Below are positions 170 through 18,353 of a stretch of 24,000 nucleotides of DNA, piece by piece. Origin of the DNA: Promethearchaeia archaeon (lineage in GTDB: Archaea > Asgardarchaeota > Lokiarchaeia > Sigyniarchaeales > SOKP01); contig JAWOFX010000064.1 of assembly GCA_046497275.1 (NCBI GenBank), positions 52 through 24,051 on the forward strand, read 5' to 3'. Within the stretch, counting starts at the first letter, position 1. Each line of letters starts with the position of its first letter. The notes beneath the pieces are model-generated. The model was given only the letters and a program-made list of their open reading frames with translations, was not told the DNA's origin and did not search any database. The position numbers were made by a program, and so were the translations under genes.

Positions 170-1582
170 TTAAAATTGGGATTCATCAATCTGAGGCATA
201 TCTGCATCATTTATGGATTTATTAATCCTCTCTTCTGATAATTCAAAGTTTTCTAAATCACCGGTCATAAATTCTTTGTACGCCAGAAGGTCAAAATAGC
301 CGTGACCACTGAAATTGAAAAGTATTGTTTTGTTTTCATTATTTTCTTTTGCTTTAAGTGCTTGATCCATAGCTTCTTTAATAGCATGATTTGTTTCGGG
401 TGCAGGTAAAATCCCCTCTGCTTTTGCAAATAACATTCCTGCTTCTATAACTTCAAGCTGATGATGCATAGTTACGTCAATTATTCCATTATTATATAAA
501 TTAGATACAATAGGAGCCATTCCATGATATCGTAATCCCCCAGCATGAATTGGACTAGGTATGAAATTATGACCGAGGGTGTGCATCTTTAGGATAGGTG
601 CTTTCTTGGCAGAATCCCCGTAATCCCAAGTATATTTTCCTTTACATACACTCGGACATGCCCGAGGTTCAACTCCAATAATCTGAATATCTGGACTATC
701 ACCACGAATTTTATCTCGTGCAAATGGAATCATTAATCCAGAGAAGTTTGACCCTCCCCCCATACAACCTATGACGATATCGGGATATTCGATACCAGAT
801 TTTTTGAGTTGTATTTGTGCTTCCTGACCAATGATGGTCTGATGAAGACAAACAAAATTAACTACACTTCCCAAGGAATATCGGATTTTGTCACTCCTTA
901 AACTATGTTCGACCGCCTCTGAAATAGCGATACCTAAGCTCCCAGGATGTTCTGGATCACTTTCATAATAACTTTTTCCAGATTCTGTAAATCTTGAAGG
1001 AGACGCATGAACTTCGGCATCATATGATCTCATTAGTATTTTTCGTCCAGGCTTTTGAATAAAACTTGCTCTTACCATATAAACCGTACATGTGATATTA
1101 AATAAGGAACATCCATATGAAAGACCAGATCCCCATTGCCCTGCTCCAGTCTCCGTCACCAGCTCATTTATTCCATCCGCTTTGGCGTAGTATGCTTGAG
1201 CGAGCGCGGTATTGGGTTTATGTGAACCCGTTGGAGAGACTGATTCATTCTTATAGAATATCTTTATTTCTTCTCCCTCAACACCCAATTCTTTTTCTAG
1301 TCCATACGCTCTATGAAGTGGAGTGGGTCTATGTGATCTTGCATAAATCTCTCTTAAATCTTTTGGGATCGGTATAGTGGGTTCTTGGGATACTTCTTGA
1401 ATAACACATTCCTTCGGAAAGATGGCAGCTGCCATTTCAAAGGGTGCAGGCTTTCCATTCATCGGGTTTATTAAGGGTGTCATAGGTGTGGGTAAATCGG
1501 GTAAAATATTTATCCACTCTTTTGGCACTTCCTTTGGATCTAACAAAATTCTTGCATTAAAATAATCTGTCACTTTAAACAC
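170..1582 (-). CDS. trpB2: tryptophan synthase beta-like protein, TrpB2 (long, stand-alone) type
   Basis: 470-aa ORF with a GTG start at 1582; an in-frame TAA two codons upstream rules out a longer N-terminus. It has the PLP-lysine motif SPTGSHKPNTA and the phosphate-binding loop GCMGGGSNFSG. The N-terminal PKEWINILPDLP segment and ~470 aa length are typical of the TrpB2 branch. No trpA or other trp genes are in the window. Confidence 0.85.
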   Translation of the reverse strand: MFKVTDYFNARILLDPKEVPKEWINILPDLPTPMTPLINPMNGKPAPFEMAAAIFPKECVIQEVSQEPTIPIPKDLREIYARSHRPTPLHRAYGLEKELGVEGEEIKIFYKNESVSPTGSHKPNTALAQAYYAKADGINELVTETGAGQWGSGLSYGCSLFNITCTVYMVRASFIQKPGRKILMRSYDAEVHASPSRFTESGKSYYESDPEHPGSLGIAISEAVEHSLRSDKIRYSLGSVVNFVCLHQTIIGQEAQIQLKKSGIEYPDIVIGCMGGGSNFSGLMIPFARDKIRGDSPDIQIIGVEPRACPSVCKGKYTWDYGDSAKKAPILKMHTLGHNFIPSPIHAGGLRYHGMAPIVSNLYNNGIIDVTMHHQLEVIEAGMLFAKAEGILPAPETNHAIKEAMDQALKAKENNENKTILFNFSGHGYFDLLAYKEFMTGDLENFELSEERINKSINDADMPQIDESQF

Positions 1583-1680
1583 GTTTTAATATTTTTTAAA
1601 TTTTTATGTGTCTCATAATAAAATTGGAAATCAATAGTATTAATGCACATAAATAAAGTTTTAATATCTTGAAAATGAAT

Positions 1681-1700
1681 CAAAACAAAAGAAAAAAGAC
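1681..1700 (-). terminator. T-rich tract (GTCTTTTTTCTTTTGTTTTG) between the Trp-rich leader ORF and trpB2; candidate attenuator terminator
   Basis: The minus strand reads T6-C-T4-G-T4, beginning ~30 nt after the leader ORF stop and ~100 nt before the trpB2 start. Oligo-T is the archaeal intrinsic termination signal. Confidence 0.3.
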
Positions 1701-1725
1701 ATTAATCGAAATAGTCCAATGCAAA

Positions 1726-1743
1726 GGCGTTATTGCCAACGCC
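1726..1743 (-). promoter_or_regulatory. perfect 6-bp stem / 6-nt loop hairpin GGCGTT-GGCAAT-AACGCC, overlapping the last Trp codon and the stop codon of the leader ORF
   Basis: Read directly: minus strand 1743-1738 GGCGTT pairs with 1731-1726 AACGCC. The final TGG (1738-1736) and the TAA (1732-1730) lie inside it. Confidence 0.4.
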
Positions 1744-1795
1744 AAGGCCACTGCCAACACCAGAAATTATTTTTAACAGTTGCCATCTTATTCAT
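1730..1795 (-). CDS. candidate 21-codon Trp-rich leader peptide MNKMATVKNNFWCWQWPWRWQ
   Basis: ATG at 1795, TAA at 1732-1730. Five TGG codons sit at alternating positions (1762, 1756, 1750, 1744 and 1738 first bases). This is the only GC-rich patch in an otherwise A/T intergenic region. It lies ~147 nt upstream of trpB2 on the same strand. No clear Shine-Dalgarno. The ORF is below the ORF-track length cutoff. Confidence 0.4.
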   Translation of the reverse strand: MNKMATVKNNFWCWQWPWRWQ

Positions 1796-1830
1796 TTTAT
1801 AAGGACTATTTATTTTTAGTTGTTTTTCAG

Positions 1831-1840
1831 TATTTAAAAA
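1831..1840 (-). promoter_or_regulatory. TATA-like box (TTTTTAAATA) upstream of the leader ORF
   Basis: The minus strand reads AACTTTTTAAATACTG, centred ~40 nt upstream of the leader ATG, which would give a short 5' leader. TATA-like strings are common in this AT-rich DNA, so support is weak. Confidence 0.25.
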
Positions 1841-1940
1841 GTTATTGTTTTTATACGTACTTTTTCCCATTCCTATTTGCGTTAGAAAAAGACATATCTC
1901 TCTTATATAATTTTATAACAAGAAAGGATTACATAGATTG

Positions 1941-2527: not shown

Positions 2528-4849
2528 ATGATAACAACCAGAGAATCTATCAATTATCAATTTTCATTAATATATGGATATTCATCGCCTAATCATGAGA
2601 ATTTGATGGTTGGAGATATAATAAGTCCAGGAAATCTAACAAAAAATCTAATAAATGAGTTATCAAAAGATGTAATTAGATATTTAACTGAATTTAACGC
2701 AATGCTGCGGGATTATACAGGATCTGAATTATACTCTGTTGAATTCGAATTATTAAATTATAAAGAAGGAGATTATAGTATTAAAATTTATCCAAAATCA
2801 ATGTTACTAATGCCTGGAAACTATAAAGAATGTGAAAGTCTTATGCTTGCATTAAAACCCGAAACAGGATATCTGAACGTTCATAAGTCTAGTCAATCAA
2901 TAAACGGGATAAGTAAGCTATTTTTCGAAGTTGAAGATTATGCCAATCATCCTAATCTTGATTATAATGAAAAGAAACAAGTTTATAAAACATTTGCTAC
3001 AAGATTTAGTAAAAAATTGTTTGGTGAATTAATAGAAGATAAATGGAATAAGAAATTAATTGGTTTATCTGAATCATTACCCACAGATAAAAAAAATTTA
3101 AAAATTTATAGCAAGCTAAAATCTAATTTAGAAATAAACTGGTATAAAACACCCTTTGAAATAAAACTTTCACAAATTGAGTTCGGAAAAATTAGAGATC
3201 CTTTTGAAGGGAAGTCCGCAATTGAACACCTTAAATTTAGTATAACAGAGCCGAGTGCGGGATTTGTGATTGAAAAAACGTTAAAATTAGGGTCTAATTT
3301 ACTAGATTTAGCAAATTGGGGTACAATTGATGAATTTCAAGAAAGAATAATTAAGTTTATCTTAAAAAAAACGAGAGATACAATTTTATTAGACTTAGAT
3401 AACAAATCTGAGATCCAAATAATTTCTCTATTTGACAATTTTCTTAAGCAAATAAAACAGAAATTAGAAGAATTTACTATATATTGTAAAAAATTTCTGA
3501 AAACCGGAGAGAAAGGAGATCTTGCTGAAATTTTATTAAAATTAAAAAAATTTCTTAAAGAGCAGAATCAAAATTATAGACAAGAAGAAATTCAAGATAT
3601 ATACATTATTCTTAGGGATTTTATAAAAAAAACAATAAGTAAAAAACAAGAAATTAGAGCAAATGATTTTAATTCTTCTTTTAATTATTTTTCTGAATTG
3701 ATAAATAGATCTTTTAATAAAATTCAAGAAAGTCTACCGAAATATCTTTTAATCAGAAGACTTAATAAAACAGTTCAAACCTTAATTAAAAAACTTAAAA
3801 GTGAATTTGATAAGGAACAAAAGCCTGTTAAGATATTGGGTTATAGATTTATTGAAAAATTTAGAGATCATCTTCTAAAAATGATTAATAAATATTCAAT
3901 CTTAACAGAAAAAAAAATAGTATTTGAAAGGGATATTATAAAAAAGAACTTTATTAGATTAATCTCAAACTATTTAGATGATTTTTTTGATAATGTCCAA
4001 TTAGGAATAGCAGAAATTATTTCTTTTGCTGAAATAAACACAGATGAACATTCGAAAAATATATCTCATTATATTGAAGATTTCAAAAAGTTCTCAGATG
4101 AAATACATTTCCTTTTAAGTTATATCCTAAGATATTCCACTATAAATAGATTTATAAAAGATAAGCCAGATAAAGACATCTCGGACCCTGTTTCTTTCTC
4201 AACTAAATTTCATAGATTTCTAGAAAAAAGATTAGCAGGGATCGATTTAATTTGGAAATCTGTAATTTTAGATTGGATAAAAAATTATGCTAAACTCTTT
4301 TTTAAATTAGAAGTCAATAGAATGTGGACAATTAATGAAATTTATACTGATTTTATCAACTATCTCGAGGAGAAGGAGAAAATATCTAGAAATCCCAATA
4401 GTTTCACAGAATTCCTGGACACTTTCATAGCTAAAGTTGAAAATGAAGATGAGAAGAAAACTCTAATGAAGTTTTACGAGCAATATAAATATTTTATTGG
4501 AGTTAATACTGAATTTCCTAAATACTTACGTGAAAAAATTGAAACTCAAATTAAAAGTTTAAATTTAGATTGGGAAAATGATTTTCCAATAGAAATTTTA
4601 TCTTCAAATGAGAATTCAAATAGTTTTTATGAATATATAAGAGAAAATGAACTAAAATATTTTTCAAATTTAATCCCTGTTCCATCAACCATGATATTAA
4701 AACATAAACTAAACAATGAGGAGTTAGAACTCTTTAAGGGAGATTTATTCCAAGTGTTTGGTTTTAAGAATTGGGGAGTTGGAAATATTGCATTAGATTT
4801 ATCTGATAATTTTCAGGAAGTATATAGAGAGTGGATAAAAGAATTATGA
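2528..4849 (+). CDS. large orphan protein A (773 aa): mixed alpha/beta N-terminal ~130 aa, then a long K/E/I/N/F-rich apparently helical region; function unknown
   Basis: An uninterrupted 2.3-kb ORF in DNA where stop codons are very frequent, so it is almost certainly coding. ATG start with a TATA-like TTATATAG ~34 nt upstream. I saw no Walker A, TM segment, Cys/His cluster or other recognisable family motif. Confidence 0.8.
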   Translation: MITTRESINYQFSLIYGYSSPNHENLMVGDIISPGNLTKNLINELSKDVIRYLTEFNAMLRDYTGSELYSVEFELLNYKEGDYSIKIYPKSMLLMPGNYKECESLMLALKPETGYLNVHKSSQSINGISKLFFEVEDYANHPNLDYNEKKQVYKTFATRFSKKLFGELIEDKWNKKLIGLSESLPTDKKNLKIYSKLKSNLEINWYKTPFEIKLSQIEFGKIRDPFEGKSAIEHLKFSITEPSAGFVIEKTLKLGSNLLDLANWGTIDEFQERIIKFILKKTRDTILLDLDNKSEIQIISLFDNFLKQIKQKLEEFTIYCKKFLKTGEKGDLAEILLKLKKFLKEQNQNYRQEEIQDIYIILRDFIKKTISKKQEIRANDFNSSFNYFSELINRSFNKIQESLPKYLLIRRLNKTVQTLIKKLKSEFDKEQKPVKILGYRFIEKFRDHLLKMINKYSILTEKKIVFERDIIKKNFIRLISNYLDDFFDNVQLGIAEIISFAEINTDEHSKNISHYIEDFKKFSDEIHFLLSYILRYSTINRFIKDKPDKDISDPVSFSTKFHRFLEKRLAGIDLIWKSVILDWIKNYAKLFFKLEVNRMWTINEIYTDFINYLEEKEKISRNPNSFTEFLDTFIAKVENEDEKKTLMKFYEQYKYFIGVNTEFPKYLREKIETQIKSLNLDWENDFPIEILSSNENSNSFYEYIRENELKYFSNLIPVPSTMILKHKLNNEELELFKGDLFQVFGFKNWGVGNIALDLSDNFQEVYREWIKEL

Positions 4850-7236
4850 TTAGCGGGATAAAAAGAAAGTCAACAGCGATGGAAAGTGCATTTAGATACT
4901 TTCAAACTGTTGATTTAATCATCTCTCATTTTAAGAGAGAAGCCGACAAAGAGAAGATTTTTGAGATATTAGATGAGACATTTACATTAAAAGATTTACT
5001 AGTTTCGACAGCAGCAATTCATATTTATCATAACTTAGGGATAAGAGTTGAACAAGCAATTGATATTAAGGAGGGTACTGTTGAATCCTCAAGAAAGCAA
5101 GAAATATTGGAGAAACAAAATATATTTGAGGAAGTGAAATATCTTCTTAAAGATTCCTTTGAATCTGAAATGGATATCTTTATGAGGATAATTGAACTTG
5201 AAAATAGATTTATTAATTTATTAATAGATTTAAGAGATCCAAACATTTCGGAAAATCAAAAACAAGAAAAATTGAATGAAATAGATCAATATTTAGAGAA
5301 AGAATTATTGAAATTTATTTTGGAATATAAAATCTTTAATTTTTATGATCTTATAGGAGATTTAATAGGTTATACCAATGAAGTGAAAAAAGATATTTTA
5401 GATGTTAGTGGAGATTTCAAAGACTTGTCAATTGAATTAGAAAAAAGACTTAAACAAGAGGAAAAAGAGGATAAATACATAGAATTATCAACCTTGAATA
5501 GAATAATTGAAAAAATAAAAACCAATTTTGAGTTCAAATCTTATCAAGAATTAAAAATGCAGGCCATGCCTGTTAGAATGATTAAAAAAGAAATAATTAA
5601 TCATGATTTGGAACGTTTTCCAATCTCTATACCTGGTTTGATGGCATTTAAAGAAGCAAATCGATTAAAAGAGAGATTAATAAAAAAAATTGAGGAAAAT
5701 TTAGAAAAAAAGATAGATTATCAACATTTTGAAGAAGAGATTTTCTCGTTTATGAAAAAGGAGATTATTGAACAATTAAATACAAATCCAAATGACTTTA
5801 TATATTTTTTACAAAATCTTAATGAAGAGAATTTCGAGGAGATTATTTATACACTTCACAAATATGGTATTTTTAATATTTTAGAATTAATCAATATCGA
5901 CGATGATTTGGCTAAAAAAGTAAAAGAAAATATGATTCGGTATAATATTAAAAAATTCGATATAATCCAACTTAATGATCGCAAAAAAAATATTTTAATA
6001 AAAACTAAAAAGGTATTAAATGAGATAAGCAGGAGCAATTTACAAAAAATAGAGGGCATTAATGATGAAATTATAGATTTAAAGAAAATAATAAAAGAGG
6101 AAAAGAATAATAATTTGGAATTATGGAAATTGATTGAAAATAAAACTGGTTCTGATTATATTGAACTTAAAGAATTTATAAGAAAGAAAGAAATTGTGGA
6201 TAAAATCTTTTTAGAGAATTTGGGAATAATGAATTATTCTCAAATATTGTTATTACTGGATTTTGAGAATATTATCAATAATTTGGTTAAAGATACTTTC
6301 TTTTATATCTTATCAAAAATTTTAAGACAATTGAGCAGAATTATCGAAGCTTTTTTAAAAATTACGAATGAAAAAACCCTTTATCTTTTAGCTTTTAAAA
6401 AGATGTATAATACAACAGAATCAGAAGATTGGGTATGGATAAAACTCGAGGAATTGATAATTCAGAGATTAATTAAGAGACAAAGTGAATTAGTAGTCTT
6501 ATTTAATGCCTATGACAGACCCTTTTTAATAAACGGATTTATATTAGCAAGATTAACTGAATCATCATTAGAAAAAGCTAGAAATATTCTAGAGAATAAA
6601 ATAAGTCCCATATATGAAGATATTAAACCAATAAAACTTAAAAAAGATTTGATCTCTCCAATATCCTATTGTTTAGCTTATGATTTAATTAAAAGGTTTG
6701 AAAATTATGAAGAATTAAGAAAAGAAAATGTACTAAAAATAATGGAAGAAAAAGTAGAGCAAAAAGAAAAAATTAAAAAGGAAATAAGAAGAAATCAAGA
6801 AAAAAATACATTCAATTGGATAGAGAGAAAAATAACTTCCTCTTTAATGAGGATAAATAGCCCAGGGATAAATCCAAATCAATTATATTGGACTGAAAGG
6901 GATACAAAAATTACTTCAGATAATATAAAACTTCATAGTGAATTAAATGGAGATACTTTTGATTTGTTTATAGAATATTTTCAATTTGCTATTGATAAAA
7001 TCGAATCTCTCTATTCTGATTTGAAACTTCCTAATCCGGAAAAAATCAAATTTATAATAAGGAAGATTATCAACGTTATTTTAAAAGAGAGATTTGCGCA
7101 TGAGCCTAATCTTGAAGAAATCAACAATATGTTGGATGGGGAAAGATATGAAGTCGCTAAACAAATTGCAAAAAAGATTGGGACTATATTAGATAAAGCA
7201 CTATATTCTAAGTTTAAATTAAAAAGAAAATCATAG
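4846..7236 (+). CDS. large orphan protein B (796 aa from ATG 4846; 801 aa if GTG 4831): K/E/I/N-rich, apparently helical; function unknown
   Basis: ATG 4846-4848 overlaps the TGA stop of protein A (4847-4849) as ATGA, the classic translational-coupling arrangement. It is an uninterrupted 2.4-kb ORF with no recognisable catalytic motif or TM segment. A T6 run at 7242-7247 follows the TAG. Confidence 0.8.
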   Translation: MISGIKRKSTAMESAFRYFQTVDLIISHFKREADKEKIFEILDETFTLKDLLVSTAAIHIYHNLGIRVEQAIDIKEGTVESSRKQEILEKQNIFEEVKYLLKDSFESEMDIFMRIIELENRFINLLIDLRDPNISENQKQEKLNEIDQYLEKELLKFILEYKIFNFYDLIGDLIGYTNEVKKDILDVSGDFKDLSIELEKRLKQEEKEDKYIELSTLNRIIEKIKTNFEFKSYQELKMQAMPVRMIKKEIINHDLERFPISIPGLMAFKEANRLKERLIKKIEENLEKKIDYQHFEEEIFSFMKKEIIEQLNTNPNDFIYFLQNLNEENFEEIIYTLHKYGIFNILELINIDDDLAKKVKENMIRYNIKKFDIIQLNDRKKNILIKTKKVLNEISRSNLQKIEGINDEIIDLKKIIKEEKNNNLELWKLIENKTGSDYIELKEFIRKKEIVDKIFLENLGIMNYSQILLLLDFENIINNLVKDTFFYILSKILRQLSRIIEAFLKITNEKTLYLLAFKKMYNTTESEDWVWIKLEELIIQRLIKRQSELVVLFNAYDRPFLINGFILARLTESSLEKARNILENKISPIYEDIKPIKLKKDLISPISYCLAYDLIKRFENYEELRKENVLKIMEEKVEQKEKIKKEIRRNQEKNTFNWIERKITSSLMRINSPGINPNQLYWTERDTKITSDNIKLHSELNGDTFDLFIEYFQFAIDKIESLYSDLKLPNPEKIKFIIRKIINVILKERFAHEPNLEEINNMLDGERYEVAKQIAKKIGTILDKALYSKFKLKRKS

Positions 7237-18011: not shown

Positions 18012-18353
18012 TTTTTTTTAATATTTTATATATTTTTTTTGATAATTAATTAAGAAATCTTTGTTTGGAAGATTATTCTTCAAAATTAGAATTTAATCAA
18101 AAATTGTTTTAATATTAGGTTTATAGACTCCAATTTTTCCATTGCAAAAAAAAGAAAATATGTTAATTTCAAAATATATTTAAATTAATATAAAAATGGA
18201 TCCCAGATTCAAAATTTTTTTTAATTAATAAATATAGCTATTAAAACATGAACAAATTAATTGTTCAAAAAATACAATAAGCTTGCACTGGAAAAAAAGG
18301 AGTCTAAAAAGATTTTAATTTTTAATAATTATTACTTAAAAAGAGGTTTTAAA

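Follow-up and report, generated by a model that had tools for sequence, protein, structure and literature searches.

The stretch of DNA analysed here, 24,000 nucleotides (nt) of contig JAWOFX010000064.1 from the Asgard archaeal assembly GCA_046497275.1 (hereafter the window), carries on its minus strand a stand-alone trpB2 gene, separated from a Roadblock/LC7 gene by an intergenic region of about 360 nt in DNA of roughly 27% G+C. The host is marked as archaeal by the window genes arcTGT, TYW2, DUF371 and Roadblock. In the intergenic region, a short open reading frame (ORF) with five alternating tryptophan (Trp) codons is enclosed in a folded RNA domain and followed by a T-run and a second conserved RNA module, termed block 2. 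A short ORF of the same kind, of 15–22 codons with two to five Trp codons, is present in all 35 loci collected in this study, which belong to uncultured organisms represented by metagenome assemblies alone. The gene and the coding elements at the window locus are the following.

170 to 1573, minus strand: trpB2, encoding a stand-alone TrpB-like pyridoxal phosphate enzyme, the gene proposed to be regulated (NCBIfam PRK12391, E = 7.8e-192, and TIGR01415; Pfam PALP)
1730 to 1795, minus strand: leader ORF, from ATG 1795 to TAA 1732-1730, reading MNKMATVKNNFWCWQWPWRWQ up to the stop
1736 to 1762, minus strand: five TGG (Trp) codons in alternating positions, proposed to act as the sensor, at 1762-1760, 1756-1754, 1750-1748, 1744-1742 and 1738-1736

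A leader ORF with alternating Trp codons

The presence of five in-phase TGG codons in a minus-strand ORF, on which the original prediction was built, is confirmed by the sequence together with the list of ORFs. The frame opened by ATG 1795 is real as well, but the start conserved by homology is the second ATG, at 1786, which gives MATVKNNFWCWQWPWRWQ up to the stop, and the in-frame ATG 1795 upstream of it is specific to the window. Because ATG 1786 is homologous to ATGGCAACT... in the relatives, it is probably the true start of the leader. The start of trpB2 shifts similarly: GTG 1573 (MTDYF..., compare ATGACAGAT in the relatives L003 and L012) is more likely than GTG 1582, which had been assigned at first.

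The periodicity of the TGG codons is far beyond chance and no accident of composition. Four TGG triplets with three-base spacing are found once in the 24 kb of the window and never in 100 dinucleotide shuffles, and the shorter pattern TGG-N3-TGG-N3-TGG has no other occurrence on either strand of 233 kb of related Asgard DNA. In seven large proteins of the window 0.72% of the residues are Trp, compared with 5 of the 18–21 codons of the leader. The Gly-rich frame through the same repeat, which had been described as lacking a start codon, does contain a GTG-started ORF of 26 amino acids at 1760-1680 (minus strand, reading MLAVALALAITPLHWTISINVFFLLF); neither its start nor its length is conserved, and we read it as a by-product of the TGGCNN repeat.

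Conservation upstream of two kinds of Trp-synthesis loci

A protein-similarity scan for TrpB2, with one genome per species, gave 14 Asgard contigs whose TrpB2 proteins are 70–85% identical. Their labels are mostly Promethearchaeota or Lokiarchaeota, with single records of Thor-, Odin- and Hermodarchaeota, and below this set there is a gap, the next proteins being bacterial and euryarchaeal homologues with at most 56% identity. A short ORF with alternating Trp codons lies 110–175 nt upstream of trpB2 and is followed by a T-run in 14 of the 14 Asgard loci, for example as MATVRKYSWQWPWLWQ, MSTNNNISWRWQWLWRWR or MAFVKTTFWDFSWPWPWRWQEC, each ended by a stop codon. Conservation of a TGG-rich ORF with a T-run in relatives, which had been set as a test of the prediction, is thereby borne out in the whole protein-retrieved set, although three of the 14 leaders are weaker and have two or three Trp codons. 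The intergenic flanks are poorly alignable: in a 15-sequence alignment the mean column identity is 57%, concentrated in few blocks.

Further loci came from a DNA-pattern scan of metagenome contigs, most matches of which are chance ones in GC-rich coding DNA, and the count of loci it gives is a lower bound. At least 16 matches are AT-rich and true; in 15 of them the leader ORF is complete, and the remaining one, L140, is truncated at the 5′ end. Among the 16 matches listed, 14 (including L140) have trpB2 150–190 nt downstream, one is at a contig end, and one, L155, is located upstream of a trp operon, where the leader MHAYKFKLGWQWPWRFE is followed by a small ORF without assigned role and then by trpD, trpC, trpF and trpB. 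With the TrpD protein of L155 as a query, four Lokiarchaeal contigs were chosen by TrpD identity alone, and all four have a trpD-C-F-B(-A-E-G) operon with the leader module upstream (two, two, three and four Trp codons). Leader and block 2 are thus found before the trp operon in 5/5 Lokiarchaeal loci (L155 and the four fetched ones). The leader therefore occurs upstream of trpB2 in at least 28 loci and upstream of trp operons in 5, and in 233 kb of flanking DNA the leader ORF is found only directly upstream of Trp-synthesis genes. This linkage to two kinds of Trp loci is the strongest argument that the element is a Trp-related cis-regulator and not an unrelated small gene, a conclusion which is well supported at the level of sequence comparison.

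The constraint on the ORF is that of a translatable unit. The 346 codons of 20 non-redundant leaders contain no in-frame stop, compared with 9 and 21 stops in the two alternative frames, which are not conserved; exactly 8 codons come before the first Trp codon (codon 9) in 15 of the 20; and in most of them the stop codon comes 0–3 codons past the last Trp codon. The usual start is ATG in the context ATGGCAACT or ATGGTTACT, while L006 and L007 have GTG and L162 has TTG, and leaders of different clades differ in length by whole codons. Nucleotide-level conservation is also fairly high in the codons that separate the Trp codons (CAG, CCT and CGT), which points to extra constraints acting on the RNA.

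Two side observations concern these loci. At L086 (11444-11500, metagenome contig Ga0102944_1000251), TrpB2 is 96.6% identical to that of the window, and the leader differs from that of the window by TGT to CGT (C to R) and by AACGCC to AACGCT in the 3′ arm of the P3 helix described below, by which a G-C pair becomes G-U; this is probably the same species as the window, recovered from a Joint Genome Institute (JGI) metagenome. The other observation is a protein of about 80–87 amino acids with an invariant LGPEK..TA.FI, which heads the Lokiarchaeal trp operons right after the leader module.

L155, 4741 to 4983, strand not stated: operon-head protein
L201, 5736 to 5984, strand not stated: operon-head protein
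L202, 5733 to 5984, strand not stated: operon-head protein
L203, 5737 to 5982, strand not stated: operon-head protein

The corresponding small ORF is present in three of the four fetched operons and absent from L204. The protein forms 29 clusters, the few of which with a source name are from Lokiarchaeota or Promethearchaeota. It has no sequence match in Pfam or the PDB, and its AlphaFold model is helical (pLDDT, the predicted local distance difference test score, of 73.6) with no significant fold match. It is at most a speculative candidate for a trans-acting factor of block 2.

Probable promoter, RNA domain and downstream module

The leader ORF is enclosed in an RNA domain of three helices (P1–P3), on which single-sequence folds agree in most loci and for which the fold of the window has a z-score of −3.3. 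Together with the promoter, its elements in the window are these.

1831 to 1849, minus strand: BRE (transcription factor B recognition element)/TATA-like promoter (AACAATAAC-TTTTTAAATA), with TTTTTAAATA at 1840-1831; predicted transcription start near 1808
1803 to 1811, minus strand: P1 5′ arm (AAAUAGUCC), directly before the start codon and at, or close to, the transcript's 5′ end, pairing with 1717-1709 in the minimum-free-energy fold
1709 to 1717, minus strand: P1 3′ arm (GGACUAUUU), in the region 9–16 nt after the stop; partner 1811-1803
1773 to 1784, minus strand: P2 5′ arm (GGCAACUGUUAA; leader codons 1–5), pairing with 1757-1746 by 11 base pairs
1746 to 1757, minus strand: P2 3′ arm (UUGGCAGUGGCC; Trp codons 2 and 3); partner 1784-1773
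1726 to 1743, minus strand: P3 hairpin (GGCGUUG-GCAA-UAACGCC), covering Trp codons 4–5 and, in its loop and 3′ side, the stop codon 1732-1730
1716 to 1721, minus strand: CAYYGG motif, single-stranded, between P3 and the P1 3′ arm, in columns conserved in two alignments

The TATA block is the best-conserved upstream element of the 15-sequence alignment, with invariant A24, T28, T29, T31 and A32, and in most loci the TATA-like box ends about 16–35 nt before the P1 5′ arm. In archaeal promoters the established distance from the TATA box to the start is about 25 nt. Because of the TATA position and this distance rule, transcription is predicted to begin at the P1 5′ arm or a few nt upstream of it. 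No Shine-Dalgarno motif was found before the leader start codon, and from this together with the position of the TATA box, the 5′ untranslated region (UTR) ahead of the leader ORF would be very short.

P1 is the helix in which the two ends of the domain are joined, and its arms change together among loci, as in AAAUAGUCC/GGACUAUUU, AUAUGGUUUAAA/UUUAAAUCAUAU, UGGUUUAG/CUAAACCA, AAUUACAUA/UAUGUAAUU and AAAAUAUGAU/AUCAUAUUUU. Cognate duplexes have −10.0 kcal/mol versus −6.4 kcal/mol for non-cognate ones (permutation p<=0.0002), and on a MAFFT alignment two-sided changes are found in 7/10 pairs. The covariation score is 0.206 versus 0.120 ± 0.018 in shuffles (0/500 reach it) and 0.07–0.105 in slid controls, figures which are supportive and not formal probabilities, as the controls leave phylogenetic relatedness in. 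Most relatives are also predicted to form P2 (cognate versus non-cognate, p=0.0006). P3 is almost invariant, with 96.7% of cells paired in the alignment; its variants in relatives are GGCUUU/AAAGCC, UUGGC/GCCAA, GCGUU/AACGC and GCGCG/CGCGC, among which GGCUUU/AAAGCC and GCGCG/CGCGC are examples of compensated changes. The perfect hairpin GGCGTT-N6-AACGCC of the original prediction is thus present at 1743-1726, but it does not stand in isolation, being one of three helices in a larger conserved fold. Furthermore, the sense strand folds better than the antisense strand in 20/20 loci for P2, in 19/20 for the whole domain and in 18/20 for P4, the hairpin of block 2; therefore these are RNA structures on the mRNA strand. 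For the CAYYGG motif no covarying partner was found. The P4 apex UCCAAU was considered as a partner for CAYYGG or for the Trp codons and rejected on inspection: complementarity exists in some loci and fails in L003, L005, L006 and L155. The outer pairing of GAAAAA (1828-1823) with the U6 run in the window fold was disregarded as well, as GAAAAA is probably upstream of the transcription start. Rfam searches matched only two tRNAs in the whole window at gathering thresholds; at E<=10, region 1540-1900 gave matches at chance level only, with neither Trp_leader (RF00513) nor T-box.

Past the domain, toward trpB2, the following elements are recognized.

1682 to 1697, minus strand: T-rich tract T6-C-T4-G-T4 (T6 at 1697-1692), a candidate oligo-U termination or pause signal
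1665 to 1687, minus strand: variable hairpin (UGUUUUGA/UCAAGAUA), the position of which is kept and the sequence not
1603 to 1653, minus strand: block 2, or P4, an irregular hairpin with apex AUUG-AUUUC-CAAU (1635-1623) and base GCAUUA...AUGA, followed by ACAC
1579 to 1611, minus strand: P5 region, in which ACAC (1611-1608) can pair with GUGU (1582-1579); conserved ACACAU

The T-tract and the TATA-like box had both been noticed before and are both found, the tract at 1697-1682. A T-run of at least five lies between leader and block 2 in 27/30 loci, versus 29% of 60-nt windows drawn at random from these contigs. It is located 15–59 nt past the leader stop (mostly 31–49 nt) and begins 0–12 nt past the extended P1 3′ arm in most loci. 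A scan for bacterial-type terminators flags P3 alone, with a weak tail. Because T5–T8 runs, often paired, occur within about 30 nt after most gene ends of the window (e.g., 18012-18040), the host genome appears to use the usual archaeal oligo-T signal at gene ends; trpB2 itself ends with T7...T7 at 166-130.

Block 2 is strongly conserved in all related loci, the leaders of trp operons included, and occurs only together with the leader. Its base has the form GCAUUA/UAAUGA and its apex AUUGAUUUCCAAU; its lower stem covaries (p=0.0002); and it is placed about 81–108 nt past the leader stop in all but one locus (L012, 61 nt). Rfam gave no match for it and no partner was identified. The apex was considered as a mimic of the tRNA-Trp anticodon arm, for which the 7-nt loop UUCCAAU fits, and this was rejected as the flanking bases form no required stem. 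The energy of the wider hairpin is strand-symmetric in one test, while the duplex test on its arms favours the sense strand in 18/20 loci, and P5 contains U-G wobbles; a DNA palindrome or operator accompanied by a proximal promoter is judged the less likely reading of block 2, though less clearly so in the window with its TATA-like 1606-1584. P5 forms tight hairpins in relatives (CACAUC-UUAA-GAUGUG, CAUCAU/AUGAUG and CACAUU/AAUGUG; cognate versus non-cognate p=0.02) and is weak in the window itself, where its loop contains an A/T-rich, TATA-like stretch at 1606-1584. After P5, a Shine-Dalgarno-like GGU/AGG is found 8–13 nt before the downstream start codon. This motif and the sense-specific P4/P5 hairpins argue that the region past the T-run is transcribed as a 5′ UTR.

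Outside the locus, two features of the window may be recorded. The Roadblock/LC7 frame runs from 1941 to about 2345 (minus strand, 134 amino acids, with the Pfam match at residues 26–105), and its first in-frame ATG, GTG or TTG is at 2144, within the domain, which suggests a gene without canonical start codon, using ATT, ATA or CTG, or a sequence error. Two adjacent large ORFs of 773 and 801 amino acids (2528-7236, plus strand, 23–29% G+C) have zero Pfam matches.

Proposed mode of action and relation to known systems

The frame, start, stop and spacing of the ORF are conserved while the flanks have diverged, which upholds the proposal of a Trp-sensing leader; its further part, control of read-through by ribosome speed, is a matter of inference. 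Ribosome-mediated attenuation at this locus would proceed as follows. Transcription would start about 25 nt past the conserved TATA box and put the P1 5′ arm at the extreme 5′ end of the RNA; next would come the ORF of 15–22 codons, usually with the first Trp at codon 9 and with its 2–5 UGG codons at alternating positions, which would supply the P2 3′ arm and the P3 5′ arm. With ample charged tRNA-Trp, the ribosome would reach the stop codon in P3 and depart, and then P2 and P3 would close and draw the P1 arms together. If P1 closes while RNA polymerase is on the T5–T8 run 31–49 nt past the stop (T6, 1697-1692, in the window), transcription would end; by this geometry, the P1 3′ arm would only just have emerged from a polymerase located at the T-run. 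When Trp is scarce, a ribosome would stall on UGG and, because P2 and P3 are built in part from the Trp codons, these helices would stay melted, the compact P1-closed domain would form too late, and the polymerase would read on into the structured 5′ UTR (P4, P5 and the Shine-Dalgarno-like site) and into trpB2 or the trp operon. The CAYYGG motif would then lie just beyond the expected leading edge of a ribosome at the stop codon. Four parts of this scheme are inferred: translation of the leader, termination at the T-run, its promotion by P1 closure, and the direction of the response.

Several points weigh against such a mechanism. Mutually exclusive structures, for which the original prediction suggested looking by folding, were not found: neither an antiterminator nor an alternative terminator pairing was seen, and a single P1-P2-P3 fold is supported. 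An all-against-all scan of cognate versus non-cognate duplexes likewise gave P1 as the sole strong long-range pairing; signals between the P1 5′ arm and the P5 region are weak and unconvincing. When 5′ UTRs of 29 loci were folded with the Trp-codon region blocked, the accessibility of the downstream Shine-Dalgarno-like site and start codon was unchanged. A ribosome stalled on UGG would cover neither arm of P1, so that its effect must be kinetic, resting on how fast the RNA folds, or steric. Archaeal oligo-T termination is generally held to be independent of hairpins. One clade (L002, L005 and L011) has a weak or displaced P1, and three of the 30 loci have T4 runs only. The strongly conserved block 2 with P4/P5 is unexplained by attenuation, and in the window, where the Shine-Dalgarno-like site is poor, the TATA-like stretch at 1606-1584 could be a proximal promoter. 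Because of the missing antiterminator, the uncovered P1 arms and a hairpin dependence that is not established, the full mechanism, a Trp-sensing leader peptide with ribosome occupancy controlling read-through at oligo-U, is given only slightly better than even chances. The narrower claim, that a leader ORF with Trp codons acts in cis on Trp-synthesis genes, can be made with considerable confidence from the comparative evidence.

Among the alternatives, the one that survives best keeps the sensing of Trp by ribosome stalling and moves the output past transcription, to mRNA stability (protection from 5′–3′ or endonucleolytic decay) or downstream translation, maybe via P4/P5, with no termination at the T-run. 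The absence of both a canonical terminator hairpin and an antiterminator alternative speaks for it, as do the long, conserved and structured 5′ UTR with a Shine-Dalgarno-like site past the T-run and the near-fixed distance of block 2 from the leader stop, 92–108 nt in most loci. We nevertheless regard it as unlikely, since the constrained folds with occupied Trp codons leave the accessibility of the Shine-Dalgarno-like site and start codon as it was, no covarying pairing joins the leader to P4, P5 or that site, and the conserved T-run beside P1 is left unexplained.

It is still less probable that the UGG triplets and the fold are a platform for a trans-acting factor, either a TRAP-like protein or uncharged tRNA-Trp as in T-boxes, with the ORF being incidental. 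Triplets every 6 nt in a trp leader do resemble TRAP sites, the conservation of CAG, CCU and CGU between the Trp codons implies constraints at the RNA level, and the domain is highly structured, with block 2 as a conserved hairpin without assigned partner. However, a platform would not lead one to expect an in-frame start, a fixed spacing of 8 codons, a frame free of stops or the placement of the stop codon; the repeats are only 2–5 in number and are UGG rather than (G/U)AG; most of them are base-paired in P2/P3 and not exposed; and no Rfam T-box or other family was matched even at E<=10.

The weakest alternative, already raised in the original prediction, is an independent small gene whose Trp/Arg-rich peptide is itself the product (antimicrobial and indolicidin-like, or trans-acting like peTrpL), with trpB2 read from another promoter, located within block 2 or past it. 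A conserved TATA box before the ORF and a T-run after it make a seemingly complete transcription unit, the peptide core WQWPWR is conserved, an A/T-rich stretch past the P4 apex, and 1606-1584 in the window, could serve as a TATA box, and bacterial leader peptides with trans functions exist (PMC7298713), but this alternative is very improbable given that in 233 kb the ORF is tied exclusively to Trp-synthesis genes of two unrelated locus types, that the N- and C-termini and the number of Trp (2–5, with W to C, L, M, F or S) drift freely, that there is no evident signal sequence or processing site, that the sense-strand behaviour of P4/P5 implies transcription through block 2, and that no TATA box is conserved at a fixed position before trpB2.

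Ribosome-mediated attenuation, the preferred reading, invites comparison with the bacterial trp leader (Escherichia coli trpL; RF00513). Both have a short ORF rich in Trp codons in the 5′ leader of Trp-synthesis genes, regulatory codons placed within helices, a U-run before the first structural gene and a default fold adopted without a ribosome. Unlike the bacterial leader, the Asgard element belongs to a host with archaeal promoter and termination signals, has no GC-rich hairpin abutting the U-run and no detected antiterminator; its Trp codons alternate (W-x-W-x-W) while the bacterial ones are in tandem; and its ORF is enclosed by the long-range P1, accompanied by a second conserved RNA module, and without an Rfam match. 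As in an attenuator, the ORF is rich in codons for the cognate amino acid and is conserved as a translatable unit while the peptide outside the Trp codons drifts. Mutually exclusive helices are missing, and the terminator is matched in its archaeal sequence form only (a T5–T8 run, 27/30 loci). The element is accordingly described as probably working like an attenuator, and it is placed outside the trpL family.

A closer comparison is offered by the bacterial trpB2 homologues. Five of these loci (L017, L022, L024, L031 and L038) have Trp leader peptides just upstream, for example MNLAGLYNGNWWWWHSLVIRT and ...IWRWRWQ..., and in four (L017, L022, L031 and L038) the leader is followed by a GC-rich terminator hairpin; the euryarchaeal trpB2 homologues in the same set have no such Trp-rich ORF. 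The downstream gene family (50–56% identity) and the short Trp-rich ORF are shared with the Asgard loci, and in L031 (Bacteroides) the Trp codons even alternate, as IWRWRWQ. In contrast to the Asgard leaders, a strong GC hairpin is directly followed by the U-run (e.g., AAAGGGCAUGUUGG...CGUGCCCUUUUUG), and P1 and block 2 are lacking. It is a possibility that the Asgard trpB2 and its leader were acquired together from bacteria.

TnaC of the tnaCAB operon also has a short leader ORF containing Trp, in which the state of the ribosome decides on termination past the stop codon, and by analogy a factor-dependent variant in which FttA/aCPSF1 replaces Rho is conceivable. TnaC, however, detects free Trp when the ribosome is at the stop codon, and the operon it induces is catabolic, whereas the Asgard genes are biosynthetic. 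Its W-x3-D-x7-P signature is missing from the Asgard leaders, whose C-terminus is variable: the last sense codon may be Q, R, S, F, W, E, C, Y or A, and there is neither a conserved Asp nor a terminal Pro. The TRAP sites of Bacillus trp leaders are similar in being periodic triplets in the leader of trp genes, but they consist of 9–11 (G/U)AG, 2–3 nt apart and single-stranded, compared with 2–5 UGG copies in a conserved frame, mostly paired, in the Asgard element. The element is thus neither a T-box nor a TRAP site, and it is no arrest peptide of the TnaC type. Mycobacterial polycysteine leaderless short ORFs (bioRxiv 10.1101/834739) resemble it as ORFs near the 5′ end with clustered codons for the amino acid of the operon, while they are bacterial and sense Cys, and the part of that preprint used here describes no counterpart of P1–P3 or block 2.

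Taken as a whole, there is about an even chance that the Trp regulon of Loki-type Asgard archaea (trpB2 and the trpDCFBAE G operon) is under true ribosome-mediated attenuation built of archaeal parts, namely a near-leaderless Trp-codon ORF and a helix from the 5′ end to past the stop that abuts an oligo-U terminator, with P4/P5 adding a further input. Leader-peptide attenuation is a textbook bacterial mechanism and needs a ribosome close behind RNA polymerase. Known control of archaeal trp genes is by DNA-binding proteins, such as TrpY of Methanothermobacter, which acts at the promoter, with no leader ORF or RNA structure. To our knowledge, leader-peptide attenuation has not been described for any archaeon, and the searched full-text literature, the coverage of which is incomplete so that this is absence of evidence only, contains no report of it.

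If true, this would be the first leader-peptide attenuator in Archaea, and it would directly show that the prokaryotes most closely related to eukaryotes control genes by coupling transcription to translation, with coupling-dependent regulation operating on an archaeal, Pol II-like transcription machinery. The element provides a template for asking whether RNA structure and ribosome position modulate oligo-U or FttA-dependent termination in archaea, and what the role of P4/P5 is. It is also a defined RNA motif, about 250 nt long and represented by 35 examples, which can seed a covariance model for searches of archaeal genomes, including for leaders of other amino acids. The leader is real, conserved and biologically coherent, and with an output that would be exerted through read-through at the T-run, it brings a principle of regulation long familiar from bacteria into the Asgard archaea, where the RNA is built differently.

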